Part shown: piece by piece, positions 31,647 to 59,942 of the stretch
Numbering within the stretch: position 1 is the stretch's first letter
Layout: every line of letters starts with the position of its first letter
The notes under the pieces: model-generated
Databases searched by the model: none
What the model was told of the DNA's origin: nothing
What the model saw: the letters and a program-made list of their open reading frames with translations, nothing else
DNA from: Deferribacterales bacterium
Lineage (GTDB): Bacteria; Chrysiogenota; Deferribacteres; Deferribacterales; Geovibrionaceae
Direction: 5' to 3'
DNA: 64,000 bases
Assembly: GCA_050251945.1 (NCBI GenBank)
Contig: JBFWLW010000001.1
Coordinates: 480,001-544,000, forward strand
Translations under genes and position numbers: made by a program

Positions 31647-31733
31647 CTTGATATTACCCTTATCGGTAGCGGAACAACCGCGCCACTGAGACGGAGCTCA
31701 CTGTGAGTGCCGGCAGGAGGCCGGCCTTCCTTC

Positions 31734-32918
31734 TTAAGATTCTTCTACTATATCATTTATTTGATTATTAGACGCATCTTCAAGTGACCATTTAGTGACC
31801 ATATTTGAAAATTGAGATGTGACTTTTTTTCTGTTTTTGATAAACCTTGCGTAGTGAGTAAATAACATTTTGAGAGATGTGTGACCCAACTGTTTAGCCA
31901 CATCTTCCGGATCGTCACCTTCCTTAAGAGACAAAACAGCAAAAGTGTGTCGGCATTGATAAGGGATGCGGTATTCAATTCCAAGTTTTTTCAGTACCGG
32001 CTTCCAGTATAACTTTATAATGTTCCCACTACTTGTATATGGCTGGCCTTGACGATTAACAAATATAAACTCAGACCGCAAAAATGAAACAGCCTTTTGC
32101 CTTTTAAGAATCTGTTGTATCATCGGGGAAAGATCAATATATCTGTCAGATCCTTCTGTTTTTGTCCGCGAGAGCTTACGTTTCGAGAAAGATTCCTTAA
32201 TATGATATGACCAATTATTTGTATCCAGATTTTCCCACTTCATAGCTAGAACTTCACCGGTACGCATACCTGTAAAAAATAGAGTTGCTATTATAGGATA
32301 AATCTTTTCATGGTCGTGCTGCATTTGAGAAAGAATCTTGAACATTTCTTCTTTTTCAAAAGGCTGAATATCTGGCTTATCAACACGAAGCTTAGAAATG
32401 CGCTCAAACGGACTCTTATCAATATATTCCTTATCAACTGCATATATAAAAACCTGCTTGAGCGTAGTTATTGTGTTATTAACTGATTTTGCTTTTCTGC
32501 CAATTGAATAATCGGCAATGAAATCATCAATATCTGCTTTAGTGATTGTATGAACTAAGCAATTATTAAAACGTTGAACAAAGTTTCTTATTTCGTTTTT
32601 ATAATTATTGAATGTACTGAGAGCTATATTGCCGGAAAGATAGCGTTTCTCAGCATTTTCCATCCAGCGACCAAAGAGTTCTTCAACACACACATTAACC
32701 CTAACTCTCCCACCAAATAAAATACATTTTTTTGATTCTGGAAAATACTCACTGTAATTAAAAGCATTTCTCTCTATCTTGTTCTCTATCTCTCCTAAAA
32801 GACGTTCTGCATACTTGATATTAGTCTTATTGTAAGGAGCCTTGAGAGATTCACGGCAACGAACTCCTTTATATCTGAAATCAATCCAAACTTTATTATT
32901 TTTTTCAAAAACACCCAT
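31734..32918 (-). CDS. int: Tyrosine recombinase/integrase with N-terminal arm-binding domain
   Basis: IDFRYKGVRCRE N-terminus; TGMRTGEV, YQCRHTFA, LGH, HY catalytic residues. Confidence 0.95.
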   Translation of the reverse strand: MGVFEKNNKVWIDFRYKGVRCRESLKAPYNKTNIKYAERLLGEIENKIERNAFNYSEYFPESKKCILFGGRVRVNVCVEELFGRWMENAEKRYLSGNIALSTFNNYKNEIRNFVQRFNNCLVHTITKADIDDFIADYSIGRKAKSVNNTITTLKQVFIYAVDKEYIDKSPFERISKLRVDKPDIQPFEKEEMFKILSQMQHDHEKIYPIIATLFFTGMRTGEVLAMKWENLDTNNWSYHIKESFSKRKLSRTKTEGSDRYIDLSPMIQQILKRQKAVSFLRSEFIFVNRQGQPYTSSGNIIKLYWKPVLKKLGIEYRIPYQCRHTFAVLSLKEGDDPEDVAKQLGHTSLKMLFTHYARFIKNRKKVTSQFSNMVTKWSLEDASNNQINDIVEES

Positions 32919-32926
32919 ACGACAGA

Positions 32927-33214
32927 TTACTCGATACCAAGCATCTTTAAAAGAGGTTTTCTGTAAAAAAGTACTTTTCTACTTGAAAGCCTTTTATAAT
33001 GTGTGTCTTCAAGAAAATCTCCGCGACATAATTTTGATTGAATAGTGCTTTTTTTCATACGAAATAAATCTGCAACCTCTTCAACCGTCATCGTTTCATT
33101 TTGATTCTTGAAAGCAAGCTCTTTTTTTAAGCGAGAAACTTCTGTTGTCGCGTCAGCAATACTTACAGTTCCATCATCAAAAACAACAGTTTTAGTATAG
33201 ATCTCTCTTCTCAT
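32927..33214 (-). CDS. Excisionase-like HTH protein
   Basis: MTVEEVADLFRMKKSTIQ HTH_17-like; directly upstream of integrase. Confidence 0.7.
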   Translation of the reverse strand: MRREIYTKTVVFDDGTVSIADATTEVSRLKKELAFKNQNETMTVEEVADLFRMKKSTIQSKLCRGDFLEDTHYKRLSSRKVLFYRKPLLKMLGIE

Positions 33215-33228
33215 ACCATTGCTCCTGG

Positions 33229-33654
33229 CTAAAAAGAATCACGACTCTGCGAGTGTTCTCTTATTAAGTTTGAAACAAGACTGCTTCGGACAGAGAAACG
33301 CCTGCGACCTAAATCAGTTATAATCTCAATGCTCACTCTCTGATTGATATCTGACAGATATTCTGCATAACGCTTTATTGACTCGCGAACATCTCCGGTA
33401 TTACTTCTACAGTCAGCAAGACTAAAGTAATCCAAAGAAACATTGTAATGTAAGGCAAATCGAGAAAGGGTTTCAAGATCCGGCTCCCTATAACCTTGCA
33501 GATAATTTGAAAGTCTTGATACTGTCAGACCAAGCTCACGAGCAACATCAGACTTTTTGGATCCTGATTCCTCTATTAGATTACGCATCCTGTCGCCAAG
33601 CTCCACTAATTTTTGATTTCTGCTATCTTTACTCATCAACCTAACCTTCGTCAT
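33229..33654 (-). CDS. XRE-family HTH regulator
   Basis: VARELGLTVSRLSNYLQGYREPD; start may be 33636. Confidence 0.8.
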   Translation of the reverse strand: MTKVRLMSKDSRNQKLVELGDRMRNLIEESGSKKSDVARELGLTVSRLSNYLQGYREPDLETLSRFALHYNVSLDYFSLADCRSNTGDVRESIKRYAEYLSDINQRVSIEIITDLGRRRFSVRSSLVSNLIREHSQSRDSF

Positions 33655-34537
33655 CTTGTATACATGCGGCGTCTATGTCGTCCAGATGAAGCTGGTATGC
33701 TTCATAAAGCGTTGCCTTTGCCTCGTCCGGTGAGATATGGGTTCCCGCTATGACTATCTCAGTCTTATGCTTTAATCGGGCATTATAGAGGTCAAGTTCA
33801 GCAGTTTGCTGTTCCTCGAAACTTTTACCCATTATTTTGAGCTTTCCTGCATAATTTTCTTCCATTACGGAGCGGATAAAGTTCTTTACTGCATCCTTGT
33901 GCAGAGTTCCCTTTCCATGCCCCATTGATACGGAGATATCTATCTTAAGCCCTGAAAGGGTTTCAAGCATCTTGAAGTTTTCGCCTATTTCGCTGTCAAG
34001 CACATTGCCTACAAAATCCGATGCGGGTGCCTCTATCGAGAGGTTCAGCTTGCGGAATATTTCCCAGTTAGTCACCTGATCGTAAGCGCTGTTGATAAAT
34101 ATGGGGCTTGCTCCTGCGGCGCTGTCTCCTGTGAGCCAGCGTGCGAAGTCTGAGAAAGCAGATGCGGATGGACCGAACCCGCCGGAAAGTGTCAGAAGTG
34201 CCTGTTTTTCCGGGTCAACGAGAGCATAGCTTACGTCTCCGAGACTGCCGCCCTCTGTGGGAGCTTCCTGAACAACACCTTCGCGGTTGAACCACACAGG
34301 AAGAAAAACCTTTCCTTTTATTAGACCAACTATAAACAGTTTCTTGTTAGAAAAAGTGATGGGTTCAAAAATCTTAAACATGAGCTCGCAGCTTTTTCCG
34401 TCGAAAAAGCCGAAGTCCATACCGCCTGCAGGCAGAGCTTCCAGCTTGAAATCCATATCTTGATAAAAGGTGTCCACTGCGGATTCCAGCCTGTAAAAAT
34501 TTACCGTTACGTTTTTTCTTTCTGCCATAATATTCAC
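33641..34537 (-). CDS. Hypothetical protein
   Basis: 298-aa ORF co-oriented with the xre/xis/int genes. Confidence 0.7.
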   Translation of the reverse strand: MNIMAERKNVTVNFYRLESAVDTFYQDMDFKLEALPAGGMDFGFFDGKSCELMFKIFEPITFSNKKLFIVGLIKGKVFLPVWFNREGVVQEAPTEGGSLGDVSYALVDPEKQALLTLSGGFGPSASAFSDFARWLTGDSAAGASPIFINSAYDQVTNWEIFRKLNLSIEAPASDFVGNVLDSEIGENFKMLETLSGLKIDISVSMGHGKGTLHKDAVKNFIRSVMEENYAGKLKIMGKSFEEQQTAELDLYNARLKHKTEIVIAGTHISPDEAKATLYEAYQLHLDDIDAACIQDDEG

Positions 34538-34725
34538 CTGATTTTCTGATCTTCTAAATCACTTACTTTTGAGTAATCTTTTTTTATCATTTCTGCTAAG
34601 AAAGCATCACAATCATCAAATGAATCAAAACTGAGCAGATTACCGTTCAAAACACATAAGTGCTTGATTTTGTTTATTTCAACACACAGATTGTATTTCC
34701 CATTTGCATTTCTTACGATCAACAT
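34534..34725 (-). CDS. Small hypothetical protein (possibly leaderless)
   Basis: Stop overlaps the next start; ATG at 34725 lies just after a TTGACA/TATCCT promoter. Confidence 0.45.
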   Translation of the reverse strand: MLIVRNANGKYNLCVEINKIKHLCVLNGNLLSFDSFDDCDAFLAEMIKKDYSKVSDLEDQKIR

Positions 34726-34730
34726 GTGTA

Positions 34731-34760
34731 AGGATAACATTACTATTCGTAATGTGTCAA
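34731..34760 (-). promoter_or_regulatory. Sigma70 promoter with palindromic operator in spacer
   Basis: TTGACA-18nt-TATCCT; inverted repeat ACATTAC-tattc-GTAATGT at 34737-34755. Confidence 0.6.
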
Positions 34761-34889
34761 GCTCATGAAAGAAAATAAATCAAATAAGAATTTACAAAAT
34801 CAGATATATTGTATTGACAATATGGAGGAATATTATAAATTAACTATAATTACAAAAGATACACGTTGTTTGAATTTTAAATAAAAAAA

Positions 34890-35516
34890 TTAGGAAGATT
34901 TTTTTGAAGGGGGAATTATTTTTTTATAATCCTGAAGGCTTTTCTCCTTTTCTGCCTGTTTTATTATTTCGTCCATTCCATTATTGTCCAAATCTTTGAT
35001 TATCTCAAGAAGCCTTGATATCTGCTTCAACTTATCCGGATCTAGTTCGGATTTCTTTAAAGCATCATCCAAAGAAATCTCATTAAAAAAGTAGGCAACA
35101 GGAACACATAGCTTTTCAGCTATTGTTTGTAAAACATCAAGACTAGGAAAATTCCTGCCTCTAACATAATGACCAATCTGTATTGCCTTGACACCAATTT
35201 CCATCTTTGCGAGATCTTCATGTGTCATATGCTTTGCATGGAGTAAATCTTTAAGCAACTGACCAAAGGATTTTTCTGAAAGGACCATGCGAAAAGCACC
35301 GGTATCATAATACTCCGTATCAAGGTTAAAAAGATCATCATACGAAATATTTAAAAATTTAATCAATTTTGAAACCTTGTGAGCATCTATATTGCCCGTT
35401 CTCTCATAATACTGATATGTCTGATAAGTGACACCAAGCTCAGCGGCAATCTGCGGCTGCGTGAACCCTTTCTTATTCCTGATTGATTTTAGTTTATGTC
35501 CAACGTGTTGATACAT
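34890..35516 (-). CDS. CI-like repressor with two XRE HTH domains
   Basis: TQPQIAAELGVTYQTYQYYERTG and THEDLAK..IGHYVRGRNFPSL; divergent from a cro-like gene. Confidence 0.8.
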   Translation of the reverse strand: MYQHVGHKLKSIRNKKGFTQPQIAAELGVTYQTYQYYERTGNIDAHKVSKLIKFLNISYDDLFNLDTEYYDTGAFRMVLSEKSFGQLLKDLLHAKHMTHEDLAKMEIGVKAIQIGHYVRGRNFPSLDVLQTIAEKLCVPVAYFFNEISLDDALKKSELDPDKLKQISRLLEIIKDLDNNGMDEIIKQAEKEKSLQDYKKIIPPSKKSS

Positions 35517-35564
35517 TCTTTAAAATACCATACACTGACAATTCAGCTTAAATGAAAATATCAG

Positions 35565-35593
35565 TTGACACCAAATATTCACAGATATAACCT
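35565..35593 (+). promoter_or_regulatory. PR-like sigma70 promoter
   Basis: TTGACA-17nt-TAACCT upstream of the cro-like ORF. Confidence 0.55.
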
Positions 35594-35632
35594 GTGTATA
35601 TGGTTTTTAACTTTAAAACTTTGAGGTGAAAA

Positions 35633-35857
35633 ATGCCAACATGGAGAGCATATATAAGAGAAACTGGTATTAAAATAATATCCGATGAAATTGAATGCTC
35701 ATACGAAGCAGTCCGGGCATGGGCTAACGATGATCTGGTTCCATGCAAAAAAAATACTGCAAAACTTTGCAGTATTATGCAAACCAGGCTTAAACCCGAT
35801 GAATTTGAAATTTTCAAAAAAAGCCTCGTGTCTGATATCATAACACCGGCAATTTAA
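35633..35857 (+). CDS. Cro-like small HTH protein
   Basis: ISDEIECSYEAVRAWAN..VP; GAGGTG RBS; divergent from repressor. Confidence 0.65.
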   Translation: MPTWRAYIRETGIKIISDEIECSYEAVRAWANDDLVPCKKNTAKLCSIMQTRLKPDEFEIFKKSLVSDIITPAI

Positions 35858-35858
35858 A

Positions 35859-38495
35859 ATGAGTAGACTGCTCATCAACGAACCGCCTTTGCTTGTGCTC
35901 CCGTTGTTAGCCAAAACAATTGGTCTCAATGAAGCTATCCTGCTTCAACAGCTCCATTACTGGCTTAAACGATCTAAGCATGAAGCAGGTGGCGAAAGAT
36001 GGGTTTACAACACATATGCAGATTGGTTAGAACAACTCCCTTTCTGGAGCGACAAAACGCTCCGAAGAATTGTAAAAAATCTTGAAGACTCACAAATCTT
36101 AATTTCAACGTATGAATTCAATCTTAGTATCAATAAGACGAAATGGTATCGAATTGATTATACTAAGCTGAATGCCCAAATCGGAACACCCAGTAAAACT
36201 GAACTAATCATTGACGACTACCCGCTTATGTTCCAGCCTACTCTCGCAGTAAATTACGGTCTCAATGAAGCCATCTTCCTTCAGCAGCTTCACTATTGGC
36301 TTAAATACGGGAATCCTAAACAGCAAGATTCACATATCTGGGTTGTCAGCAGCTATAAAAACTGGCTTAAACAATTCTCATTCTGGAGTGAAGACACTCT
36401 CTATCGAACAATAAAGAAATTATCTGATATGAATCTTGTCATAGCTACAGGAAAATACAATAGTTCCGCCATGGATAAGACCAAATGGCTTACAATCCGG
36501 TATGATATGTTCCCAGCCGCAACGATACCGCAATCTGACCAGACGACACCGCAATCTGACCAGACGATACCGCAACTTGACCAGACGATACCGCAACTTG
36601 ACCAGACGATACCGCAACTTGACCAGACGATACCGCAACTTGACCAGACGATACCGCAACTTGACCAGACGATACCGCAACTTGACCAGACGATACCGCA
36701 ATCTGACCAGATTACACCGCAATTTGACCACATACGACACCGCAATCTGACCAGTCCACATTATTATATAGACTATAATACAGAGACTATAACAAAGACT
36801 GAAAGAAAGATCGGCAAGAGCCAAAGCCAAACAACTACAAATGAAGTTTTAACATCTGTTCATGAAAATTCAGTTCAGATTCAAAAATTGCCTGACTTTT
36901 TCAACAATGTTGATAACTTTGAGGCGCACAACACGTCTCAAACGCAAGAAAGCGAACCAAACAATACCATGACATCGAAAACACCAAAAACTCTCACCAG
37001 AGACGAAATACTCGCTCATTACGATACAGCGTTCAGCTTGTTCAAGCTGTTGATAAATGAAAACGCAATTAAAAAGCCGACAGCTATCCTAGAAGGTCTG
37101 ATTGAAGACGGAATTAACAAGTATGGAAATAACTTCATTGAAATAATTTTTGAGAACGTCAAAAAATCTGATTTTTTGCTAGGGATAAAATCTTTCAATG
37201 TTAAATTATCTTGGATTATAAAAAACGCAGAAAATATAATATCCGGTAAATACGAAAATGAAGACTGTAAATCTTTGTACGAACTTGCGCAGGAGTGTTG
37301 TTCAGAAAATCAGATATGTCCTTTGATCAAAACAAATAAAACACTGCTTCAAAAATGTAAATTCTGCAACAAATACCCCAATAGACAGAACAAAGTAGGA
37401 GTAGTTGAAAAAACTCCAAAACAACAAGCAGAAGAATGTTCTGTAAAAGGCTTCTGTCCCATGGAACGTTTTAATTTAAAGCATTTAAAATCTTCCCCTG
37501 CATGTACTGTTTGCAGATTCGGGCCAAAACCAGAAGAGACAACAGTTACGGATACAGATCCTCAAACTCAAGCTAAAAAATGCTATGAAAAATGCAAAGG
37601 CATGTGTTCGCACCGTATAATGAAAACACCAGCACTTGAATATTGTATATTTTGTCCGGGAACTGTAGACACCACACCTAAAAGAAAAAAGCAAAAATCA
37701 TCAAAAAGTCGGAATCAATTAGAACAATCATGCAAAAAACCAAACGATATGATCGTTAACTATAAAAATTCAGACGAGGTCTGGATTGCCGCATATGAAT
37801 TTATCAACAGCATTGATGAACATAGAAAAATCTCAAAACTTATAGAGGAAGTTGCCGTATTTTCTGTCTATAGCGTAAGCGATTTGCACTCTGAAAGCCT
37901 GATTATCGCATATAACACGTTAATGGAATTTGCTGCTACAGATCAACACATTACTCTTTCAAAACTACAAAGTCACTTCTACATGAATTTAAAGAATTTT
38001 TTTATCAGGAAATGCTCTAATATTCCAGCTCTGAGGGACGTTCTGAAGACTGATAACAAAAGTGCATGTTCATTTTTCGATATTTCGGAGATAGAAGGAG
38101 TATTGCAGACTGAAATTGATAATTCAAACTCAGTTTTCATTGACGATGAACTGGACAACGATTTAATCACAAATTCAGACGAAACCATACGCATTCTTTT
38201 AGGCATACTTGAACCGAAAGAAGAACAGGTTTTTCGTTACAGATTCGGTTTAACACAGCGCGGGAAACTGACACAAAAAGAATGTGGTGAGATATTTAAC
38301 TGTACGGATAAAAACGTTCTCAAGATAGAAAAAGAGGCTGTAAATAAGATTAAAGAATTCATAAAAGAAGAAAAAATTAATAAAGACATGTCTATCAGTC
38401 TGCTTAAAGAAAAAGTCGCTCAATACCAAAAGAAATTAAAACCGATTAAATTTGATGGTTATTTTGAACTTGGAAATCTCGCTAATGCTATCTAA
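35859..38495 (+). CDS. Multidomain replication-initiator-like protein (2x wHTH, heptad repeats, 3 Cys-rich repeats, sigma70 region-4-like C-terminus)
   Basis: Duplicated GLNEAI.LQQLHYWL...W..QL.FWS..TL.R...KW..I.Y domain; LEPKEEQVFRYRFGL..KLTQKECGEIFNCT..NV.KIEKEA. Confidence 0.7.
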   Translation: MSRLLINEPPLLVLPLLAKTIGLNEAILLQQLHYWLKRSKHEAGGERWVYNTYADWLEQLPFWSDKTLRRIVKNLEDSQILISTYEFNLSINKTKWYRIDYTKLNAQIGTPSKTELIIDDYPLMFQPTLAVNYGLNEAIFLQQLHYWLKYGNPKQQDSHIWVVSSYKNWLKQFSFWSEDTLYRTIKKLSDMNLVIATGKYNSSAMDKTKWLTIRYDMFPAATIPQSDQTTPQSDQTIPQLDQTIPQLDQTIPQLDQTIPQLDQTIPQLDQTIPQLDQTIPQSDQITPQFDHIRHRNLTSPHYYIDYNTETITKTERKIGKSQSQTTTNEVLTSVHENSVQIQKLPDFFNNVDNFEAHNTSQTQESEPNNTMTSKTPKTLTRDEILAHYDTAFSLFKLLINENAIKKPTAILEGLIEDGINKYGNNFIEIIFENVKKSDFLLGIKSFNVKLSWIIKNAENIISGKYENEDCKSLYELAQECCSENQICPLIKTNKTLLQKCKFCNKYPNRQNKVGVVEKTPKQQAEECSVKGFCPMERFNLKHLKSSPACTVCRFGPKPEETTVTDTDPQTQAKKCYEKCKGMCSHRIMKTPALEYCIFCPGTVDTTPKRKKQKSSKSRNQLEQSCKKPNDMIVNYKNSDEVWIAAYEFINSIDEHRKISKLIEEVAVFSVYSVSDLHSESLIIAYNTLMEFAATDQHITLSKLQSHFYMNLKNFFIRKCSNIPALRDVLKTDNKSACSFFDISEIEGVLQTEIDNSNSVFIDDELDNDLITNSDETIRILLGILEPKEEQVFRYRFGLTQRGKLTQKECGEIFNCTDKNVLKIEKEAVNKIKEFIKEEKINKDMSISLLKEKVAQYQKKLKPIKFDGYFELGNLANAI
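36522..36754 (+). repeat. 21-bp tandem repeat (iteron-like), 10 in-phase copies plus 1 offset copy
   Basis: Consensus ACGATACCGCAACTTGACCAG. Confidence 0.95.
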
Positions 38496-38521
38496 AAAAG
38501 GGGAAGCCGAAGCTTCCCCTA
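38494..38521 (-). terminator. Intrinsic terminator of the minus-strand ncRNA
   Basis: AGGGGAAGC-TTCG-GCTTCCCCT-TTTTT on the minus strand. Confidence 0.85.
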
Positions 38522-39745
38522 ATGAGACAGACAAGTTGAACTTGTCCGGTATCTTAAAAGCATTTACTTCCATAGAAGATTTGAACCTAGATCCCTTCGG
38601 CCAGCACCTTTTCTTCAGTGCTCATCTGTCCTTCGCTTACCACTTTCCGGTGCCACCCGGATAATGTGCCGCAGGCTCTTAACCTGTACGGTCGGACGCA
38701 GACGTGGAGCTTGCGCTCCGGGCTTACTACGAATCCTCTGTGCCCTGCCGGATATCCGACAGGTTACATCCCCGATTCAGATAATGCACCAACAGCCTAA
38801 GCTGTCCCGATGCCGTGAGCTTCTACCTCACCTACCCCATGTAATACCTTAGACGGCTCCTGTACTTTAATTTTCGGCGTCGGCACTTATGCCGGCTTTA
38901 ATGCAGTTTTCAGCTTACGAAGTGTCACAGATCAGCTTACTCGCACTTACTTATCAAAGTTTTAAACGGAGCTTCCTCTCGTCGTCATAGTATTTCGTGT
39001 CGCCCTCACGGGCTTTAAACCGACTGCTCTAATTGCAAGGACTTCAGGATGACCAATCCGTTATCTCCCGCAACCGCCGGTTCACTTGCGGGTTAGCAGA
39101 GCTTCAGCTCATGCTCCCCCGACCAAAAGGGTATCTATCCTATCCAGGCGCACCGCTTCGCGCGCTTAAAACGAAACATGAACTCAACCTTTAGTCACAC
39201 CCTGCTTTGGCAAAGCAGGTAGCTCCTGAAGGCTGGTTCCCGAACCATGCGGACGAGTTTCCTTCGTACATGGCTCTCCGGTTCATCCCTTATTCCGTAA
39301 AATGGCTTGAAGTTTCATCGGAGCTGGTCAGGCTCTGGAAATACGGACTTCGGGACTCTCCTACAGTTGAAATGCTTTTAAAAAACCAGGCATCAATCTA
39401 TATCATCAGCTAAAAAGCTGTTGGCTGGGGAAAGTGCCGCTGATTTCGTTCGTTTCTACATACTGCCTCCAAACGGCTACTCGCCGTAACTCAGAGAAAC
39501 GAATCTCATCTTGTGCACTTGCTTATTTTGGTTTGCATCTGCAGACAGAAACACAACCTCACTCAGTCGGGGTCCCTTTCCGGGACTAATGCGTACCTGC
39601 TGTATAGCAGTAAGAAGTGTAACCATGGAATTTAATCACAATATTGCTGTCCTGAGTTTCAGGGTTCCTTTCCGGAACAACACAGCTTTGCCCACGTTGG
39701 CGGACTAACCGGGAGCAATCAAGCTCTATTTATTTCACAATATAT
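38495..39745 (-). ncRNA. Circularly permuted group II intron RNA (DV-DVI, 24-nt exon, DI-DIII)
   Basis: DV GAGCCAUGUACGAAGGAAACUCGUCCGCAUGGUUC (39276-39242); DVI with bulged A at 39184 ending AU at 39178; exon 39177-39154; GUGCG at 39153; EBS2/EBS1 complementary to the exon. Confidence 0.85.
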
Positions 39746-39751
39746 GTCTGG

Positions 39752-39781
39752 AATTTAGTCCGTTATCAGCGTAGATGTCAA
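39752..39781 (-). promoter_or_regulatory. Putative sigma70 promoter for the permuted intron RNA
   Basis: TTGACA (39781-39776)-18nt-TAAATT. Confidence 0.55.
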
Positions 39782-40012
39782 CGCTTTTGCCGTTCGTTAT
39801 ATCCACTTCTGTAATAAACGATAACATTTTGATGTTATTCGTTTATTACTTTTCGATGATGGAACGAAGGATTGTGGAAAAGTCTTACTCCGAAGCTCGT
39901 CTCAACGCCTGCGGGGGTTTCTGCCTTACCCCCGCCCACCGGCGTAGCCTTCGAGCATCTACGGCGACTTTACCACAATCCTTCTCTTTACCATCCATGA
40001 CATTATAAGAGT

Positions 40013-41038
40013 ATGAAAATCGAAAATAACTACTATAACTTACGTCGCTCACAACTGAAAATTCTCATGCGCTCATATTTCCAAAACGGTGAGCTTTATG
40101 AAATCATGAATCGCAAAACAACAAATGAAATGGCGGTCAAGCTGGCTGATAAATATTTTCACAAAGCAGGACCTACTATCTACGATGAAGTGGTCGGCAT
40201 GTACAAAGTGTTCCTCTGCCTTGCACCGATCCTTCAAAAGCAAAAGAACAGCTTCAAGCTGGACTGGACAAAAGGGAATGCCCTCAGCTGGCTCCGGAGG
40301 CTTTTCAACGGAAGAAACAAGAAATGGTACTGCTCGGTATCTGTTCTGCCTCGACAGCACGATCCGGAGCTCTTCAAGCGTGTGTTTCGCAACTTAGGAA
40401 TATCAGATAACGCTTTTATCGAATATGCCCTTGAGAGATATCTCTGCTTTTGGGGAGCCACTGGGCGAAAAGGATCTCTGGCAAACTGCATCTTCGACCC
40501 ACTCTTTTTCAGAACTGATTCCGGACTCAGAATAGAAAACTGCGTAATAAATGTCTCATCAGCCAAAAAAGACGGTTACTCTCATATCTTTCAACAACCG
40601 CTTGAAATCATGTGCTATTCAGTAACAGGATACGAATTATACAATCGTACTCACATAGAAGTACGTCTCTCCGCAGACTATTTAAAATCTATCCGACAAA
40701 GACTTGGGATTGTAGTTGAAGACCGGACAAGCGTTGAACATAAACTAAGACTGATAAACGCACAGATTAATTCGTTTATCGAAAATGCCAGGTATGCAAA
40801 AGATGCATTCGAGCAAGTGAGAGAGGTGCAGCAGTATTTTTCCGGTAAAACAAAACGTCTTGCAGGCGTTAATCCGGAATTCAGACATATCACAGCAGCA
40901 ATAACAACACAGTATCTTGAACGAGTATCGAACCGCTTCACATACCAGCGAAATAACTTTTTCTGGGATAAGGACCACAACTCAATTCCTGAAAAAACAT
41001 TCATGATATATTTCAGTCCATATCGGGAAAAAATATGA
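40013..41038 (+). CDS. Degenerate group II intron RT/maturase-like protein lacking YADD
   Basis: PTIYDEVV..LAPIL (RT2-like), GSLANCIFDPL (RT4-like), RIENCVI at the RYADDFVI position, C-terminal thumb/X-like LRLINAQINSFIENARYA. Confidence 0.7.
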   Translation: MKIENNYYNLRRSQLKILMRSYFQNGELYEIMNRKTTNEMAVKLADKYFHKAGPTIYDEVVGMYKVFLCLAPILQKQKNSFKLDWTKGNALSWLRRLFNGRNKKWYCSVSVLPRQHDPELFKRVFRNLGISDNAFIEYALERYLCFWGATGRKGSLANCIFDPLFFRTDSGLRIENCVINVSSAKKDGYSHIFQQPLEIMCYSVTGYELYNRTHIEVRLSADYLKSIRQRLGIVVEDRTSVEHKLRLINAQINSFIENARYAKDAFEQVREVQQYFSGKTKRLAGVNPEFRHITAAITTQYLERVSNRFTYQRNNFFWDKDHNSIPEKTFMIYFSPYREKI

Positions 41039-41472
41039 AAATTAAAAGAAAAGCGCAGCCGCCAAAACCATACAGATATCGCCGCGATCTGACAGAAGAT
41101 CATTTTTCTATACGCCATGCATTCAGGAAAGGATTCCGTAAGCTGAAAGTTGAAGTCTTGTATTCAGGTCCAGTTTTCAGGAATTTATATTTTCCTATCT
41201 GGGAACGTTACGCTCCCGGAGAGTTCCGATTTCTGAAAACAGAGTTCAGAGAGTGCAACATCACAGTTATCAGCAATACTGACGTGAAACGAATTTGTAA
41301 CTATATCGACATTGACAAATCTGCCATTCTTCAAGTTTTTTTTGATTTTGCAGCCTTACCTGTACTCTCCGCAGAGGCTCGCGATAATGAGTATTCATTC
41401 CTTGCGAGATTCAGATATGAGGGAGTCAATAGCTACGCATTTGCAACAGAAAGATTGATTAAAAAATTTTAA
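41035..41472 (+). CDS. Hypothetical basic protein coupled to the maturase-like gene
   Basis: ATGA overlap with the upstream stop; 145 aa. Confidence 0.65.
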   Translation: MKIKRKAQPPKPYRYRRDLTEDHFSIRHAFRKGFRKLKVEVLYSGPVFRNLYFPIWERYAPGEFRFLKTEFRECNITVISNTDVKRICNYIDIDKSAILQVFFDFAALPVLSAEARDNEYSFLARFRYEGVNSYAFATERLIKKF

Positions 41473-41550
41473 ATAAACTCTTAATCATTGATACATTTGT
41501 AATCATTTCTGAAAAATTTATAAAACATTTCAAAAAGAATCTTAAAACAG

Positions 41551-41569
41551 TTACCCTCTCTGACATTTA
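41551..41569 (+). promoter_or_regulatory. ICE operon-upstream motif TTACCCTCNCTGACATTTA (copy 1)
   Basis: Near-identical to copies at 48698 and 57831. Confidence 0.7.
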
Positions 41570-41596
41570 CTCTTTAGAAAAACTAAGGAGGCATCA

Positions 41597-42529
41597 ATGA
41601 TTGGTATTGATGTAGGATTCGGCGATGTGAAAGCCGCATACCTTGAAAAAGACGAAATTAAGTATCTCAAAATCCCCACGGCAGTAAAATACGCCGGAGC
41701 AAACTCAGCAGGAATAAACGAATCAGGTGTTTATTCTTTCCAGGGTAAAGACTATATAGTCGGCGAAAATGCCCGTTTCGGCGCATTCAGCACCCGCAGC
41801 TATGATTTCCTCAAAAGATACTCCGGTCTGTTCGTATTCCACGTTCTTAAAACACTGAGCATCGAAGATGAGAAAATAGGCATAGGACTGCCTCTGAACT
41901 GGTATTCCAAAAAAGATGACTTTTTCAAAGAATTGACCGCAACAGTGGTAAACGGCGAACTTCTCAAATTTGAACCTAAGCTGTTCCCGCAAGCTGTGGG
42001 TGTTCTGCTTGATTATCGGTACAACATTAAAGGCGAGCTTAAAACTGATACAGACAGAGACGGCATCGTTCTGGATATCGGATACAACACCGTTGATGTC
42101 CTTTGTTTTGAAAAAGGCGCCGCAGTTCGCTCCGATGCAGCAACAATCGAAAAATTCGGTATCTCTCGCATAATCGTCGAACTCACAGACATCATTCAGA
42201 AAGAATACTCTTTCCAGCTTTCAGAACAGGAAACCAAAGAAATCTTCATCTCCGGCAAAATGAAACTTTACGGAGATGAAAAAGATATGTCGGAAACTGT
42301 CAGGTCATTAATCGAAAAATATTTTGAAGAACTCATGCACACAATAGAGGCTCGCTGGGAAAGCAGACTTCAGCGCGCTGAGGTAATGCTGCTTGCCGGC
42401 GGCGGCGCAGTTACCCTCAGAGAGTATATGCCCTCTTCTCTTTCAAAGATCATGGCAGTTCCAGTGCATCCTGAATTCAGCAATGCCCGCGGATATCTCA
42501 AAGGACTGATTAACTCGGAGATAAAGTGA
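41597..42529 (+). CDS. ParM/StbA family actin-like partition ATPase
   Basis: IGIDVGFGDVK, PQAVG, LDIGYNTVD, LAGGGA, FSNARGY. Confidence 0.88.
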   Translation: MIGIDVGFGDVKAAYLEKDEIKYLKIPTAVKYAGANSAGINESGVYSFQGKDYIVGENARFGAFSTRSYDFLKRYSGLFVFHVLKTLSIEDEKIGIGLPLNWYSKKDDFFKELTATVVNGELLKFEPKLFPQAVGVLLDYRYNIKGELKTDTDRDGIVLDIGYNTVDVLCFEKGAAVRSDAATIEKFGISRIIVELTDIIQKEYSFQLSEQETKEIFISGKMKLYGDEKDMSETVRSLIEKYFEELMHTIEARWESRLQRAEVMLLAGGGAVTLREYMPSSLSKIMAVPVHPEFSNARGYLKGLINSEIK

Positions 42530-42729
42530 TGGAAGCATACTTTCAGGTGGCATGTTTTAACTGCTGTAAAGCCGGAAATTGCGGCACAAAGGGCGAATTC
42601 TCACCGGATGAAGACCTTATCCCTTGTTATGAGTTTTCGCCTAAAACAGACGTTCTGACAAGTGCAGTAAAGGCAGCTCGTTCAGGCGTGTACAAAGAAG
42701 AAGCAGAGGTTCAGGCAAATGGCATGTAA
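42526..42729 (+). CDS. Small Cys-rich hypothetical protein
   Basis: Overlapping operon ORF; CFNCCKAGNC. Confidence 0.5.
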   Translation: MMEAYFQVACFNCCKAGNCGTKGEFSPDEDLIPCYEFSPKTDVLTSAVKAARSGVYKEEAEVQANGM

Positions 42730-42970
42730 AAAGAAAACGGGACAAAGCTATTTCAGGGAGTGGTGCATGGAGTGTAAACGCAAAAGTGCAGAACCTAAAC
42801 TACACGGAGACAAGAACGGCGGCACATTTGAGTGCAATGACCTTACATGTCCCGCACAGAGGCACGTTAACGGCATTTATCTCGATGCAAAAGCAATCAA
42901 GACCTATGTGGTCGGTGGTGAGACTGGCAAAAACAACGTTGTCAAACTTGTTAAAAGGAGCGGGATATGA
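42719..42970 (+). CDS. Small Cys-rich hypothetical protein
   Basis: CMEC...CNDLTCP; overlapping operon ORF. Confidence 0.55.
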   Translation: MACKKKTGQSYFREWCMECKRKSAEPKLHGDKNGGTFECNDLTCPAQRHVNGIYLDAKAIKTYVVGGETGKNNVVKLVKRSGI

Positions 42971-43236
42971 CGCACAAACTCCAGATCACAATTAACAACG
43001 ATGAACTCTACAAGACAATCATGTCAATCAGCAAGACCCAGCGCGGACAGTTTGTGACTATGGCTCTCGCGGCCTTCATCGCTACAGATGAAGGTCAGAG
43101 ACTTGTGAACTCATTCGCAAAGCACAAACCAGCACAAGAAACAATCAACGAGGAGCTGAAGAAAACTAGCGAAGCGATGAAAGAAACTAACAGTAAACAA
43201 GGCGGGATCTCCGTCATGGGCGATTTCGGGGAGTAA
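42967..43236 (+). CDS. Possible ParR-like ribbon-helix-helix adaptor
   Basis: HKLQITINNDELYKTI...RGQFVTMAL resembles an RHH; downstream of parM. Confidence 0.5.
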   Translation: MTHKLQITINNDELYKTIMSISKTQRGQFVTMALAAFIATDEGQRLVNSFAKHKPAQETINEELKKTSEAMKETNSKQGGISVMGDFGE

Positions 43237-43246
43237 GGAGTAGCTA

Positions 43247-43534
43247 ATGAAGAAAAAAGCGTTAAGCAAAGAAGAGATAGAAGATAGAGAGTTGGGAAAA
43301 AACTTTGTTCTCGTGATCTTCGGCATACTGTTACTGTTCACTAGTATTAGCCTTGTTCTCGGAAAGAAGGATCCTGTTGTCAGACATACAAGCTATGCAC
43401 CGTGGCATTTTTACTGCGGCGTAGCCATGGCATTTCCTACGTTTGGAAAAATTGTATGCCTTGAAACATCGCTAATCATCATGGAAATGGAAGAGGCTTA
43501 CAAAAGGCAGGGAAAAGACAATGCAAATCAATAA
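43247..43534 (+). CDS. Small membrane protein
   Basis: AAGGAG RBS; hydrophobic segment. Confidence 0.5.
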   Translation: MKKKALSKEEIEDRELGKNFVLVIFGILLLFTSISLVLGKKDPVVRHTSYAPWHFYCGVAMAFPTFGKIVCLETSLIIMEMEEAYKRQGKDNANQ

Positions 43535-44792
43535 ATTTCTTAAAAACAAGCAGAAAAGGGCGTTTAAAGTTAAGCGTATTGTCTGGAAGCACGACAAGAA
43601 AGTGGACTTTGGTTACTTCTATAATGTTGATGATATGTTTGATGGCTACTACCATCATGCCGATGGCATCGTATCAATTTGCGCAGCAAAGCTGAACAAA
43701 AAAGATATCTTTGCAGTATGCTTCACAAAAGACGGTAAATTATGGATACCGGTTCTGAACCTTTCCAACGATTATTGCGAAGTCATAAACCTTCTTCATG
43801 AGTTTGCACGGGCTTTAAAACTTAGAAGAGCAGACTGCGGCTGTTGCTTTCATAAGCGGGACAAAGTCTGTTCAAAATTCGGAAGACTTTCTTCTCTTTG
43901 TGGTTTGATTCTCCGGAATCATCAGTGTGGCGAACACGAAAAGCCGAAGCCATTCTATGAATGTAAAGTCTATGAGTATGAGCTTGTTCGTCCGAGAAGT
44001 GCGGAGAGACTTGCTCAGTTGATGAATGAATTCTATCCGGTTGGCAGCTTCGTTTACATCCCTGATTTTGCGAGAGACTATAAGTTTAAAGTCATTGAGC
44101 ATGATGCTGATACACCTAGCATGATGAAAGTTCAGATTTCCCTTTACCGCTTTGTAGCCGTTAATGTTGAGGTCAATGTCAAGGAACACTATGTGTGCCC
44201 TCATAAAGACATTGGGGATGTTTTTGATTTAAGAACTCGAGATCGGAAGTTTGAACCAAGATGCGAGATTAATATGCTCGCAGATGTAGAATTAGAAAAC
44301 AAAAAGTTATCAATACATCTTGCTCAGATTGACAATTCAACGACATACCAAGTTTCAGATGGGGTTATCACTCCAATTAATCGGAAACCAATTATAGCCG
44401 GAGCTGTTTGTGTTGGCTGTGGTTGTGATGATCTCCACGCATGTATCTCAGAAACGGGAGATGCATGTTACTGGTTGAAAGTTAATTATGACACGAAACA
44501 AGGGGTGTGCTCAGAGTGTGAGAGTCTCATAGACGCTGACATAGATCAGCTACCAACAAAGGTTCAAGAAGACAAAAAATACCATATCAAGCTCGCAGGT
44601 TTTGAACAAGCTGATTATCTCGTTATTGATAACAGGGAAGTTATACAAGCATGTATGACTTCACAGCAAGGGCTTTCTGTGGGACAGCCGATTTATAATT
44701 CGGAACTCAAAATCGGCGATAAACTCCTGACTTTAGTGAATGGAGAGGCAGAAGAAGTTGAATATCCCATAATCTCCTTTAAAGAGGTGTGA
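43521..44792 (+). CDS. Hypothetical protein with Cys-rich zinc-finger-like segments
   Basis: CVGCGCDDLHAC...CYW...CSEC. Confidence 0.65.
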   Translation: MQINKFLKNKQKRAFKVKRIVWKHDKKVDFGYFYNVDDMFDGYYHHADGIVSICAAKLNKKDIFAVCFTKDGKLWIPVLNLSNDYCEVINLLHEFARALKLRRADCGCCFHKRDKVCSKFGRLSSLCGLILRNHQCGEHEKPKPFYECKVYEYELVRPRSAERLAQLMNEFYPVGSFVYIPDFARDYKFKVIEHDADTPSMMKVQISLYRFVAVNVEVNVKEHYVCPHKDIGDVFDLRTRDRKFEPRCEINMLADVELENKKLSIHLAQIDNSTTYQVSDGVITPINRKPIIAGAVCVGCGCDDLHACISETGDACYWLKVNYDTKQGVCSECESLIDADIDQLPTKVQEDKKYHIKLAGFEQADYLVIDNREVIQACMTSQQGLSVGQPIYNSELKIGDKLLTLVNGEAEEVEYPIISFKEV

Positions 44793-45475
44793 AAATGAAA
44801 AAAAACAGCTTTTATACAAAACTAGAAAATACGCTGTTCGAAAAAATTGATCCACAGCTAACGTTAACGATTACTTCGGTTATGGGTCTTGCTCCCGTAG
44901 TGTATTATATGCCAGAACACAATAATATCCCCTTAATTGCATACTCTTTTGTAATGCTAGGTCTCACCATGGCTGGAGTTACACTTGGCATTGCCAAAGA
45001 CAATAAAGAAATCGACAAGCTCTGGTCGGAACACAGAAGAAAACGAGGCAAAGTTCAAGGCAAATATGGTGATCGGATTAAAGAGCTTATTCACAACACA
45101 AATTCTGCGGGTGTGAGAGACCATAAAATAGGAGCCGAAGATATTGCATGGCAACTCGAAACAAGGACTTTTAGAACAGAAGATATACTGGAGAACTATG
45201 AACTGCCATCGCTCGTTGAAATTCATAAATTGTCTGAGCTTTTCTTTTGGAGAACATTCAAACTTGATGCCAATATTTCCGAATTTCCAGAAGAAGAAGG
45301 CAACCGTATTATTCTTTGTAACATGCTTTTCATCATCACAGGTGACGAGCGGTATCTGTCAGAAGATTGTAGACCGGAAAGCTCCGTTGTACGCAAAGTA
45401 TTTGAAGATTACGAAGCAGTTTACAACGCAGAATGTTATGAACTTCTTGAAAGTTACGAACGGAGCCTGACATGA
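44789..45475 (+). CDS. Hypothetical membrane protein
   Basis: Two N-terminal hydrophobic segments; operon overlap. Confidence 0.6.
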   Translation: MKMKKNSFYTKLENTLFEKIDPQLTLTITSVMGLAPVVYYMPEHNNIPLIAYSFVMLGLTMAGVTLGIAKDNKEIDKLWSEHRRKRGKVQGKYGDRIKELIHNTNSAGVRDHKIGAEDIAWQLETRTFRTEDILENYELPSLVEIHKLSELFFWRTFKLDANISEFPEEEGNRIILCNMLFIITGDERYLSEDCRPESSVVRKVFEDYEAVYNAECYELLESYERSLT

Positions 45476-46671
45476 ACTACATAAGCCTTGAAATCAATAA
45501 AGACGGGAAAAACGTTGAGATCCTTCTGGGGGGCACTGTACTGGAAGGCAGCGACATGCAAGGCGGTATCAGGCTGCTTATTAACAACATAGAAGCCAGC
45601 TTACTTAATTCATCTTTACTCGACAAAACTGAAAGAGAGAGCGCTCATCATGACAAACAAGATGAGCTTGAAGAGCAACCGACAACGACAGCACCTGTTG
45701 TTCCCCAGGAGGTGAAGCCCGAAGAACCAGAAAAATCTTTAAAACAGCCGGCTGATAAAAAAGCTGTTCCTGCTAAAGGATCCGCAGCTATTCTCAGCCG
45801 AGCAGTCATTGATTTGATAAACGCTGAATGTTCAGCAAAGGGTTTGAGCATGTTGGGATTCAACGATGTTATCGGAAAATTGTGTGGCAGAAAACCAGCA
45901 ACAATAGGGTTTTACTATTATCAAAGAGCCAATACCCCTGTTGATGTTGCACACATCATTGGTGAAGTGATTGGCTACCAGCTTGAAGTCAAAAAAGATG
46001 AATTTGGTGAAAAAAATTGGTTTCCGGTTAAGCAATGCGATAAAACCAGAGATCTACCGGTTAAACAGAAAAATGTAAAAAAAGTACATAAATCTGTACA
46101 AAAAAACAGTAAGTCCGATGATGTCAGATGTCATCTAAGTACAGAACTTCTTGCCAAAATTGATGAATATTTAAAAATTACGAAATTTTCAAAAGCAAAA
46201 CTGGCGAAGCTGTTAGCTGCAAAATCAGATAAAGCACATCCAACAATACTGAACATGTTTTACGGAGCATTAAGGATGCCGGAGTCTTTGGCACTGAGTC
46301 TTGCTGAAATTCTTGGTATTTCGATAAGTCGTTCACCAAATATGCTCGGTGAAGAGAAGTGGACTATTGCATCGACAGATAAGGGTGACAACGATCTGAG
46401 TGAAAAATCTGAAGCTGGAAACAATGCCGTAACACGTCTATCGACAGGAGTACTCAAACGCATCAAAGAGTACAGAACCGCAATGGCAATAGATGAAATG
46501 CTATTCGCTTACAGGATTGCAAATAATTCAGGGCTCCCGCGCGAAGCATTTATGGATGCTCTTCAGAGTGGAGATGTTTCTGATGAAGTTGCAACCGCAA
46601 TTGGAGATGTTCTTCAGGCAAAACTGCATAAAGTGATGTTCGCTGATGGTGGCGGCGAGTGGAGTTGTTGA
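45472..46671 (+). CDS. Hypothetical protein with three repeated HTH-like modules
   Basis: Repeated LS..vl..I...A..IG.V(L/I)...GE..W pattern. Confidence 0.6.
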   Translation: MNYISLEINKDGKNVEILLGGTVLEGSDMQGGIRLLINNIEASLLNSSLLDKTERESAHHDKQDELEEQPTTTAPVVPQEVKPEEPEKSLKQPADKKAVPAKGSAAILSRAVIDLINAECSAKGLSMLGFNDVIGKLCGRKPATIGFYYYQRANTPVDVAHIIGEVIGYQLEVKKDEFGEKNWFPVKQCDKTRDLPVKQKNVKKVHKSVQKNSKSDDVRCHLSTELLAKIDEYLKITKFSKAKLAKLLAAKSDKAHPTILNMFYGALRMPESLALSLAEILGISISRSPNMLGEEKWTIASTDKGDNDLSEKSEAGNNAVTRLSTGVLKRIKEYRTAMAIDEMLFAYRIANNSGLPREAFMDALQSGDVSDEVATAIGDVLQAKLHKVMFADGGGEWSC

Positions 46672-46729
46672 GTTATCAATATGTTCCTTACCCCTCCGGT
46701 CATTTCAAAAGAAATAACTGGAGGGGATT

Positions 46730-48691: not shown

Positions 48692-48697
48692 AGGTAT

Positions 48698-48716
48698 TTA
48701 CCCTCGCTGACATTTA
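48698..48716 (+). promoter_or_regulatory. ICE operon-upstream motif (copy 2)
   Basis: TTACCCTCGCTGACATTTA, 31 nt before the pilin ATG. Confidence 0.7.
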
Positions 48717-48747
48717 TAAGGCAGAAAATTTTCTGTGGAGGTATCTC

Positions 48748-49047
48748 ATGTTCAAGAAAATCACAGTCATAGGTCTTCTGCTGCTCATCGCAGGTTCCGC
48801 ATCCGCTTACACCGTTCCGGTTTCCGGCGCTCTTGCATATACCGTGTACGATATCGTGATAAACAAAATCATCGGCGGTCCCATTGGCTACACTGCGGCA
48901 GGAGGACTTGTCACGTATGGTGCGTATGCATTCGGCACTGGTGCGCAAGGCGGCACTGGCACTGCGATCAAAGCAATTACGGCGGGGGGAACTATAGGTG
49001 CACTTGCGCTTATAGTCGCGTCTCTCGGAGCTGTTTATTATTTATGA
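48748..49047 (+). CDS. traA: Conjugative pilin
   Basis: Signal peptide plus two hydrophobic helices; first gene of the tra operon; GGAGG RBS. Confidence 0.7.
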   Translation: MFKKITVIGLLLLIAGSASAYTVPVSGALAYTVYDIVINKIIGGPIGYTAAGGLVTYGAYAFGTGAQGGTGTAIKAITAGGTIGALALIVASLGAVYYL

Positions 49048-49313
49048 AAGCCATAATTCCGCAATACATGCACAAGCCTAACAAGATTAAATTCCTGGAT
49101 ACCGATGAATTTATGTTCATCCTGAACGCTATATTCTTAGGAATTTTCTTGCGCAGCGTAATCATGTTTTTTGCAGGACTCGGTATATTTTGGTTTTACA
49201 GAAAGGGTAAATCAAAATATCCGCGCGGCTTTTTCAAGCATTTGCCACACATCATGGGCATCAGGAATTTCCAGTATTTTTCTGATATTTTCGTAAAGCA
49301 TTTTAAGGAATAA
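49044..49313 (+). CDS. traL: Conjugal transfer protein TraL
   Basis: MKAIIPQYMHKPNKIKFLDTDEF...YRKGKSKYPRGFFKH; between pilin and traE. Confidence 0.8.
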   Translation: MKAIIPQYMHKPNKIKFLDTDEFMFILNAIFLGIFLRSVIMFFAGLGIFWFYRKGKSKYPRGFFKHLPHIMGIRNFQYFSDIFVKHFKE

Positions 49314-49316
49314 CAA

Positions 49317-49877
49317 ATGATATTCAGGAAATATGTAAGCAGCGCTTCAAACCTGTTCGCTGAAAACCGTTTAGCTAAATTCATAATTATAGTCCTCATA
49401 GCGGTTATAGTGAGTCAGCAGTATATGCTACGGACGGCATTCAGCGAACATCCGGTGTTTTTGATACCCGCAGGGGGGTGGGTCAAGGGTAAAGTGTCTG
49501 TTTCAGCCACAACACTTGACCCTCTTTACCTGAACGGGTTTGGAACATATGTTGTCTCTTTGCTCTATTCTTTCACCCCAGCTGACGTACAAGGCAAATA
49601 TAAAGAACTGACAACATTGCTCGCTCCGGATGCATACGCTTCATTATCCGCCATTCTGTTGAAAAAAGCGGAAAACTACAAAGACAACGACGTATCCAAT
49701 ACAGCAAATATCGTCGGTATCACATTGCTTTCAAAACCGGATGTGATTGAAATTAAGACTGAAGTTACCAAATTCATCACATCAGAAAGAATCGAATCAA
49801 AACAAATCAAAATCAGGATTGCATACGCCGTCGATAACGGTCTCCCAAAAATAACAAAAATCGAAGAGGTAAAATAG
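49317..49877 (+). CDS. traE: Conjugal transfer protein TraE
   Basis: N-terminal TM, LIP, YL..F..Y, FTP; synteny. Confidence 0.8.
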   Translation: MIFRKYVSSASNLFAENRLAKFIIIVLIAVIVSQQYMLRTAFSEHPVFLIPAGGWVKGKVSVSATTLDPLYLNGFGTYVVSLLYSFTPADVQGKYKELTTLLAPDAYASLSAILLKKAENYKDNDVSNTANIVGITLLSKPDVIEIKTEVTKFITSERIESKQIKIRIAYAVDNGLPKITKIEEVK

Positions 49878-52364: not shown

Positions 52365-52366
52365 GG

Positions 52367-55147: not shown

Positions 55148-55157
55148 GGGAAAACAG

Positions 55158-57814: not shown

Positions 57815-57830
57815 GCAATCATAGTCACTT

Positions 57831-57849: not shown

Positions 57850-57883
57850 TACCTCAAAGACTACAGTCTCGCGAGGTAAAGGC

Positions 57884-59938: not shown

Positions 59939-59942
59939 TATC

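Follow-up and report, generated by a model that had tools for sequence, protein, structure and literature searches.

The window analysed here, i.e. the whole stretch of 64,000 nt to which all unprefixed positions refer, contains the left half (31711..64000, delimited by att repeats and Pfam matches) of a 63-kb integrative conjugative element (ICE; C1:511711-574591) with 22-bp att repeats at C1:511711 and 574570. The element encodes an integrase, a rep-like ORF, a ParM-like ORF, a topoisomerase and F-type tra genes. Between the rep-like and ParM-like genes, in a conserved position approximately 50 kb from the ICE coupling protein, it carries a module composed of a structured RNA and a divergent partner gene. 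In the rep-like ORF (35859-38495, plus strand, 878 aa) an N-terminal motif is duplicated, a stretch of 21 nt is repeated in tandem, and the C-terminus carries a sigma70 region-4 domain; the ORF is kept beside the RNA in 4 related loci (excluding G026, whose contig starts there). The ICE cargo (G000:C1:543945-555007, L027) encodes a helicase/DUF2726 protein, a pPIWI-associated nuclease, and RES and DUF4238 proteins, and looks like a defence island. The window also contains a ZMP/ZTP riboswitch (24585-24672, plus strand) and a tRNA (13972-13889, minus strand), both ordinary.

No ORF of at least 80 aa was found between 38500 and 40010, and the partner gene begins at 40013. The minus strand of this interval holds the only match to Rfam RF00029 in the whole genome (39278-39178, D5-D6), which is followed by a 24-nt spacer (39177-39154) and then by GUGCG, 3' of which approximately 600 nt of structured RNA extend to a terminator-like hairpin. 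Read in the direction of the RNA (all features on the minus strand), a 5' part with hairpins preceding D5 (39279..39750, read from alignments) leads to Domain 5 (39242..39278; RF00029 score of 43.3 bits, fold and alignment), with its AGC triad at 39275-39273, a GAAA loop and a 2-nt bulge that is CC in the window RNA and AC in its 6 aligned homologues. Domain 6 (39178..39240, from the fold) has a bulged branch A at 39184 and the 3' end AU, and its motif GTTGAGTTCAY is invariant in the alignment of 7/7 homologues. The internal exon is followed by Domain 1 (38836..39153, starting with GUGCG and supported by pair counts in the Id helices), by Domains 2, 3 and the rest of 4 (38560..38835, with approximate borders, from covariation and gamma-gamma'; gamma A at 38739) and by an intrinsic-terminator-like hairpin with a U run (38493..38519, from the sequence). 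Two loops of the 5' part (39427-39417 and 39329-39324) are complementary to 38796-38789 and 39056-39050 and probably form stapling pseudoknots, as judged by eye from the alignments, and a sigma70-type promoter (TTGACA ... TAAATT, 39752..39781) was predicted by eye. With the AGC triad, the 2-nt bulge and the bulged branch A all present, and with the order D5-D6-exon-D1-D2-D3-D4 and reversed internal splice sites, this RNA is a circularly permuted (CP) group II ribozyme of a divergent lineage of that known class. The letters and coordinates in a preliminary description of the locus all proved correct when checked against the sequence. The permuted arrangement proposed there is upheld. Selection on the ribozyme is indicated by two-sided change in 70 of 169 RNAalifold consensus pairs (7 sequences) and by the covarying gamma-gamma' pair (A-U in the window, G-C in 6/7).

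Among 68 genomes of the phylum, five carry the ribozyme RNA, and the gene of the divergent 341-aa partner is found in the same five. Together with two metagenome loci (L020 and L021) these form the set of 7 homologues used here; a genome scan gave 2 loci and a metagenome scan 3, two of them being new and having the RNA (L020, L021), and L019 starting inside the partner gene. No homologue was found among viral contigs, no homologue of the window's lineage on plasmids searched by DNA and protein, and no match of the Rfam D1-D4 models to the window RNA even at an E value of 1. The Id structure was hand-named from the window sequence, because the RNAalifold consensus mispairs the EBS loop; in its named helices 92% of cells are paired and 10/32 pairs show two-sided change, which was reached by 0-1 of 500 shuffles, the 7 related rows being few. 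On the evidence of sequence comparison, the ribozyme structure is under selection. Contigs of 4 runs, which are unable to show absence, contained no splice or reverse-splice joint, and a metatranscriptome contig of 268 nt covers the unspliced exon at a depth of 2.2, from which neither transcription nor its absence follows. A CRISPR spacer of G036 (L015:7058-7089, C2; RF01317 repeats) is identical over 32/32 nt to D5-D6 of the window (39258-39227, minus strand); its target has a CC PAM-like flank and the spacer differs from G036's own D5. This match to the window ribozyme is a sign that the element is mobile and has been met by a relative.

The internal exon (39154..39177, minus strand; defined by pairing and homologues) is predicted to be released as a 24-nt RNA circle and ends in the IBS1 GAAGCG (39159-39154), which has one mismatch. 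A single EBS, complementary to the 3' end of the exon with 5/6 pairs in the window, lies in an 18-nt terminal loop of D1 (38916..38933, minus strand; identified by alignment and closing stem), with EBS1 CACUUC at 38924-38919. The pairing of EBS1 with the internal exon, as first described, is confirmed: CACUUCGU (38924-38917) pairs with 39161-39154, with a C-A mismatch at -2. The stem closing the loop shows compensatory changes (helix 7) and CACUUC is invariant in 7/7 homologues; EBS1 is therefore real and exceeds chance. The frame of its loop, GAKCU-N4-EBS-GUA, resembles that of the Thermus CP loop, GAGCU-N3-EBS-GUA. Across the homologues the exon varies in length from 21 to 267 nt and its IBS1 is imperfect in 7/7 (GAAGCG 4x, GAAAUG 2x, AACGUG 1x), EBS1 being constant. 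The base before the EBS makes no delta-delta' pair, which is widespread though not universal among CP ribozymes, as an A faces G, A or U as the first exon base; an EBS3 of IIB/IIC type in the Id loop is possible. The exon does fold into the hairpin that had been proposed to bring the splice sites together (-6.7 kcal/mol), but such a fold would bury IBS1 and is absent from the other six exons; the splice-site clamp was rejected on these grounds.

A second pairing, EBS2-IBS2, had been described between CGUUUAAAAC (38968-38959) and 39172-39163. It does form 10 bp in the window, with p = 0.02 (one G-U allowed) or 0.13 (three) after correction for the whole D1 search space, and on this basis one could read the RNA as having EBS1 and EBS2 of IIA/IIB type, with an exon substrate attenuated by the mismatch or a 19-nt target in trans. 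We regard this reading as highly improbable. The pairing with the own exon exists in only 1/7 homologues (shuffle p of 0.32-1.0 in the other 6), and G035 and G036 carry the identical ten 'EBS2' letters without it. The first base of the segment (38959..38968, minus strand) belongs, paired, to the end of Id(ii), the middle makes up the 5' strand of an internal (coordination-type) loop of Id, and the two final bases are paired at the start of Id(iii), so that the helix overlaps conserved Id stems. When covariation was checked in an approximately 97% identical contig (run X2), which has 17 differences over 38620-39207, 8 fell in the exon, 4 of them among the ten 'IBS2' letters, and none in 'EBS2'. 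A conserved and covarying EBS2-IBS2 in the Id2 subdomain, as in IIA/IIB introns, was not found, and EBS2-IBS2 was rejected for want of conservation and covariation and for its overlap with the Id stems. Nor is the classical IBS2/IBS1 spacing kept, since 'IBS2' lies at -10..-19 behind an 8-nt IBS1. In IIA/IIB introns IBS2 lies near -8..-13. A genome search for the 19-nt IBS2-IBS1 target (0-1 mismatch, gaps of 0-2 nt) returned the exon itself only, and a target of this kind in trans was rejected as well. The 10-bp helix could, on sequence grounds, represent a local alternative fold of the window RNA alone. For CP introns only one IBS-EBS pairing has been described, supplemented by delta and an AUX element (available part of PMC13717195).

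The partner gene (40013..41038, plus strand) encodes a divergent 341-aa protein, whose predicted model (pLDDT 88) has the RT palm-fingers-thumb fold of a group II intron RT/maturase. The top 5 Foldseek matches are intron RNP proteins, and the VIA comparison with 6me0_C gave Z 19.1 and an rmsd of 3.2 over 287 residues. The catalytic YxDD is lacking, there being no DD in the 341-aa sequence, and members of the family show RIENC or RRANE at the alignment position that we take to be the place of YADD. The partner is probably a catalytically dead maturase, as far as the predicted model and the motif indicate. The partner profile matches 89 representatives, with named members in Hippea and Geobacteraceae. 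Comparisons with AcpG proteins were negative (AcpG TTHC007: BLASTP E 26, hhalign probability 0.2; profile against 5 AcpG-type proteins: best E 0.098), and the protein atlas searched with the partner gave no match. A 145-aa ORF (41035..41472, plus strand), with no Pfam or NCBIfam match, overlaps the partner stop codon and follows the partner gene in the 5 related loci whose sequence reaches that far. It is translationally coupled to the dead-RT gene, and in published-type loci acpG, too, is accompanied by a second small ORF or by an RHH gene. RHH genes adjoin 5/7 of the fetched Thermus CP loci, and the RHH fold is known from relaxosome accessory proteins. In the 628-aa protein P0079, the N-terminal part of a dead-RT partner is apparently fused (by eye) to a coupling-protein-like C-terminal domain; such a fusion would tie the partner family to the coupling protein.

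The constancy of EBS1 beside an exon IBS1 that is imperfect in 7/7 homologues led to a search for another target, and thereby to a conserved DNA site. A perfect match to EBS1 alone, GAAGTG^GAT (39801..39809, minus strand), is present in cis, at a distance of 650 nt upstream from the exon and also upstream of the predicted promoter, with the predicted scissile bond at 39804/39803. The suggestion that the mismatch betrays a better-matched target elsewhere is therefore right in so far as a perfect EBS1 site exists, but this site is in cis and is not the 19-nt IBS2-IBS1 expected in trans. Among the intervals from partner ATG to D5, GAAGTGGAT is the only 9-mer common to all 7; it starts with the exact complement of EBS1, and it represents the only family of at least 7-mers that all 7 upstream intervals share. 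GAAGTG occurs once per locus on the RNA-sense strand in the 7 homologues, and AGAAGTGGAT once in the ICE. A point against is that in this lineage the +1 G finds no partner in the A preceding EBS1, so that such pairing does not account for recognition of the 3' side. An inverted repeat (39811..39849; dG -12.9, 0/500 shuffles as stable) able to form a DNA hairpin ends 1 nt before the site. A hairpin precedes the site with p<0.06 in 6/7 own-family loci and with p<0.02 in only 3/8 published-type loci. A second, long hairpin element (39866..39984, approximately 110 nt, 72% identity) is present once in the genome and has no Rfam match; in the window it stands upstream of the target, in G036 and G035 inside the exon (L013:7976-8084 and L014:8613-8507). 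The exons of G036 (165 nt) and G035 (267 nt) exceed the range of 15-86 nt given in print.

Both here and, by eye, in Thermus the site stands ahead of TTGAC promoters, so it is probably DNA lying outside the transcript. Its spacing to TTGAC is fixed at 28-30 nt in 6/7 homologues, on the opposite strand it follows a -10-like hexamer, abutting a possible -10 of a divergent promoter, and published-type proteobacterial sites follow TTATAA or TATTAA. Such features would suit a regulatory function, in which the overlapping divergent promoters would be controlled through binding or cutting of the site by the RNP, or the 5' leader of a longer transcript containing the site would be processed by cutting. 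We nevertheless consider it unlikely, as a pure promoter element would not covary with the EBS and as regulation leaves the absence of relaxases and the linkage to coupling proteins, both considered below, unexplained.

Covariation between EBS and site was followed in CP loci, comprising, besides the 7 own-family loci, 8 of 14 proteobacterial plasmid matches, 8 of 19 Thermus matches and 2 more of 30 AcpG-type protein matches, the EBS loops of published-type loci being located by inspection. In 21/23 loci the 700 nt upstream of D5 contain a perfect cognate 7-mer, against an expectation of 0.015-0.06 each (the seventh base of the own-family 7-mer was chosen after seeing the data; the 6-mer expectation is 0.09-0.24). 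Non-cognate EBS types, tested 92 times, gave 5 matches. A perfect own exon is present in 1/23 loci (2/25 in the full set). In the full set, 24/25 CP loci have a cognate perfect upstream site, for six EBS sequences; as the loci are related, these counts are not independent. The covarying EBS/site pairs are CACUUC/GAAGTG, AAUCUC/GAGATT, AAUCUU/AAGATT, AACCUC/GAGGTT, GAUGUC/GACATC and AACUUC/GAAGTT. The two misses are L038, in which only CGGATT^CC and no perfect site was found, and L033 (pPO70-4), whose site lies beyond an IS256. In this plasmid (L033/L060) the IS256 splits the CP ribozyme at D5 and parts it from the upstream site, which amounts to a natural knockout. An E. coli plasmid locus has GAGATT^CC upstream and an exon mismatch at -2, as in the window. 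Two predictions made in advance were borne out: for L049/L050 the site foretold the EBS, with three compensatory changes relative to other Thermus loci, and for Gdi-1 the site was predicted from the EBS (AACUUC, with GAAGTT^CC between partner and RNA; 2/200 shuffles). In published-type loci a G before the EBS faces a first exon C, in agreement with the published delta pair.

It is very likely that the upstream DNA site is the true substrate of the ribozyme, and the internal exon is best explained as a disposable, imperfect mimic of it. Group II RNPs normally reverse-splice into IBS sites, and one may ask whether the site serves selfish mobility, or is a relic of it, i.e. a homing or re-insertion target or the memory of an ancestral insertion, with an RT acting in trans. 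Since the long hairpin element sits in the exon of G035 and G036 and upstream of the target here, an exchange of upstream and exon sequences is indeed suggested. However, the partner is without a DD motif, the genome has one RF00029 match, no copy was inserted at the target site in 25 loci, and a relic site would not follow changes of the EBS better than the exon does; that the permuted order cannot insert as one unit is argued in the available text of PMC8637638. Mobility is thus quite unlikely to account for the site.

Nicking and rejoining of the element's own DNA at this site accords better with these findings and may be envisaged in the following steps. The transcript would back-splice and expel the 24-nt circle, leaving a branched RNA with a free D6 3'-OH; back-splicing has been shown in vitro for other CP introns. 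EBS1, assisted by the dead-RT partner, would then, as the covariation suggests, pair with single-stranded GAAGTG beside the DNA hairpin, in a manner similar to the recognition of a stem-loop and IBS1 by group IIC RNPs. In the first reverse step of group II introns the D6 3'-OH is joined to the downstream 5' phosphate of the target, a 3'-OH is freed, and the forward step reseals. By this established chemistry, an attack of the D6 3'-OH on the bond after GAAGTG would produce a nick at which the 5' end of the DNA is covalently attached to RNA and its 3'-OH is free, and the forward reaction would reseal it. The imperfect exon would favour arming of the RNA and steer the armed RNA to DNA instead of the circle. 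We hold these three steps, i.e. back-splicing, pairing with the site and nicking-rejoining of own DNA, with considerable confidence. The last and most speculative step is that nicking-closing would replace a relaxase at an origin of transfer, with the RNP being handed to the coupling protein.

This step is suggested by the plasmids that carry CP ribozymes. MOB-suite typed as non-mobilizable 14/14 and 19/19 plasmids matched by CP RNA queries, and 30/30 plasmids with an AcpG-type protein compared with 137/1305 with a homologous coupling protein, bearing in mind that the program can miss divergent relaxases and that the baseline is one of plasmids with such coupling proteins and not one for Thermus. 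In plasmids pRP6297_1 and pBN5, which encode VirB proteins and a Rep3 initiator, the RNA is directly followed by a coupling protein; no relaxase is annotated in them and none was found by Pfam in 40 chosen ORFs (picked from 105 with a length of 170 aa or more and two that are shorter, in the case of pRP6297_1 from the first 50 of 51.4 kb). Read in the direction predicted for transfer, the coupling protein is followed by genes for DUF932, ParB-like and DUF3560 proteins, which are typical of leading regions. By annotation pSCU-171-2 resembles both plasmids. This E. coli plasmid (L061) and 9 similar E. coli plasmids of approximately 30 kb have VirB genes, a coupling-protein homologue and an AcpG-type gene and are typed non-mobilizable; pSCU-171-2, the only one of them that was read, has a CP ribozyme with a perfect upstream site.

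The same nicking at the same site might instead serve replication or maintenance, the 3'-OH priming rolling-circle or strand-displacement synthesis of the plasmid or of the excised ICE and, in the ICE, an HD protein acting as the relaxase. The conserved place of the module between rep-like and ParM-like genes speaks for a replication role in this ICE, in which the HD protein is linked to the coupling protein. Small CP plasmids (4-16 kb) have no transfer genes in the stretches read, and CP RNA lies near the origin on pPNAP05 (available part of PMC8637638). We rate replication as rather unlikely overall, as pRP6297_1, pBN5 and pSCU-171-2 encode their own initiator proteins, and as it predicts neither the exclusion of relaxases (30/30 vs 137/1305) nor the adjacency of coupling proteins.

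The HD protein (YdjM + HD; G000:C1:570017-571732, L043) adjoins the ICE coupling protein, and both occur together in 4/4 genomes having either, i.e. in 4/5 genomes overall; G035 lacks both by these queries and is therefore no test of the link. The HD motif is present and the 3H motif (HHH) absent in 4/4 homologues of this protein, and Pfam gave no TraI_2 match at its gene. In the protein atlas it falls in generic HD clusters, mostly from Thermodesulfobacteriota. Predicted alone it gave an unusable model (pLDDT 31), and a PDB sequence search was uninformative. Judged from its motifs it could be a divergent MOBH-like relaxase or belong to an unrecognised relaxase family, and owing to it the description of the element as an ICE without a relaxase candidate was dropped. 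MOBH relaxases have a TraI_2 domain with HD and 3H motifs, and no covalent intermediate is reported for a MOBH enzyme in the available part of PMC6736028; for the latter reason a division of labour between HD protein and ribozyme is conceivable, if speculative.

We therefore lean, if only slightly, towards a relaxase-like role of these ribozymes in conjugation, with more assurance for the plasmids without a relaxase than for this ICE. The full form of this reading, to which we assign a probability of roughly one half, is that CP group II ribozymes are RNA relaxases, which, once back-spliced and together with the dead-RT partner, nick a cognate nic site next to their gene, bind the DNA 5' end covalently, pilot the strand through type IV secretion and recircularise it by ligation. 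It would explain why some plasmids encode a coupling protein and VirB proteins without a relaxase. Should an RNA indeed stand in for the relaxase, we know of no earlier RNA catalyst of conjugation, and the mechanism would be categorically new. Transmissible plasmids would then include ones now called 'non-mobilizable' in several phyla, among them those of E. coli. The ribozyme would also be a programmable, reversible DNA nicking-joining catalyst, and an example of a retroelement domesticated for horizontal transfer. Owing to the covarying DNA target beside the gene, a precise candidate substrate and a predicted bond can be named. No upstream target or relaxase role of CP introns was reported in the literature searched, in which subscription journals were sparsely covered.

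Among known systems, the closest are the published CP ribozymes, of which Cte-1 and Gdi-1 have reportedly been studied by cryo-EM. The window RNA shares with them the D5-D6-exon-D1-D4 order, the reversed internal splice sites, the single EBS, the short variable exon, a divergent partner gene, the location on mobile elements and a similar EBS-loop frame. It differs from them in its canonical GAGAGCC D5, its GUGCG/AY ends and the lack of a delta pairing to the first exon base; its sequence has no BLASTN match to published-type CP RNAs on plasmids, and its 341-aa partner no sequence match to AcpG. Pairing of the EBS with the internal exon was described for CP ribozymes ('T-large' RNA), their function being called unknown, and it was noted that DNA might be cleaved by a reversal of splicing, of which mobile elements might make use; an upstream DNA site and a link to relaxases are absent from the available text of that paper (Roth et al. 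2021, PMC8637638).

Group IIC RNPs lack EBS2 and recognise a DNA stem-loop, a spacer and a short IBS1, with the maturase supporting the EBS loops (Chung et al. 2022, available part of PMC10190682). The window RNA likewise has a hairpin before a short IBS1-type site and no EBS2. IIC introns, however, insert themselves and have an active RT inside D4, whereas here the RT-fold protein is separate and without DD, and one fixed site is found. HYERs are group II ribozymes without an active RT that cut DNA via EBS-type pairing; they are unpermuted and hydrolytic, whereas the window RNA keeps its branch A and is predicted to make a covalent, reversible nick. DNA-cleaving ORF-less IIC ribozymes of the HYER type are named in bioRxiv 10.64898/2025.12.30.696962, the available part of which does not mention an upstream DNA target. 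As in oriT systems, an inverted repeat stands beside the candidate nic site next to mobilisation genes. HUH relaxases likewise act by reversible transesterification, with a 5'-linked catalyst and a free 3'-OH. These use a tyrosine for this purpose, whereas the catalyst proposed here would be an RNA and the nucleophile its 3'-OH.
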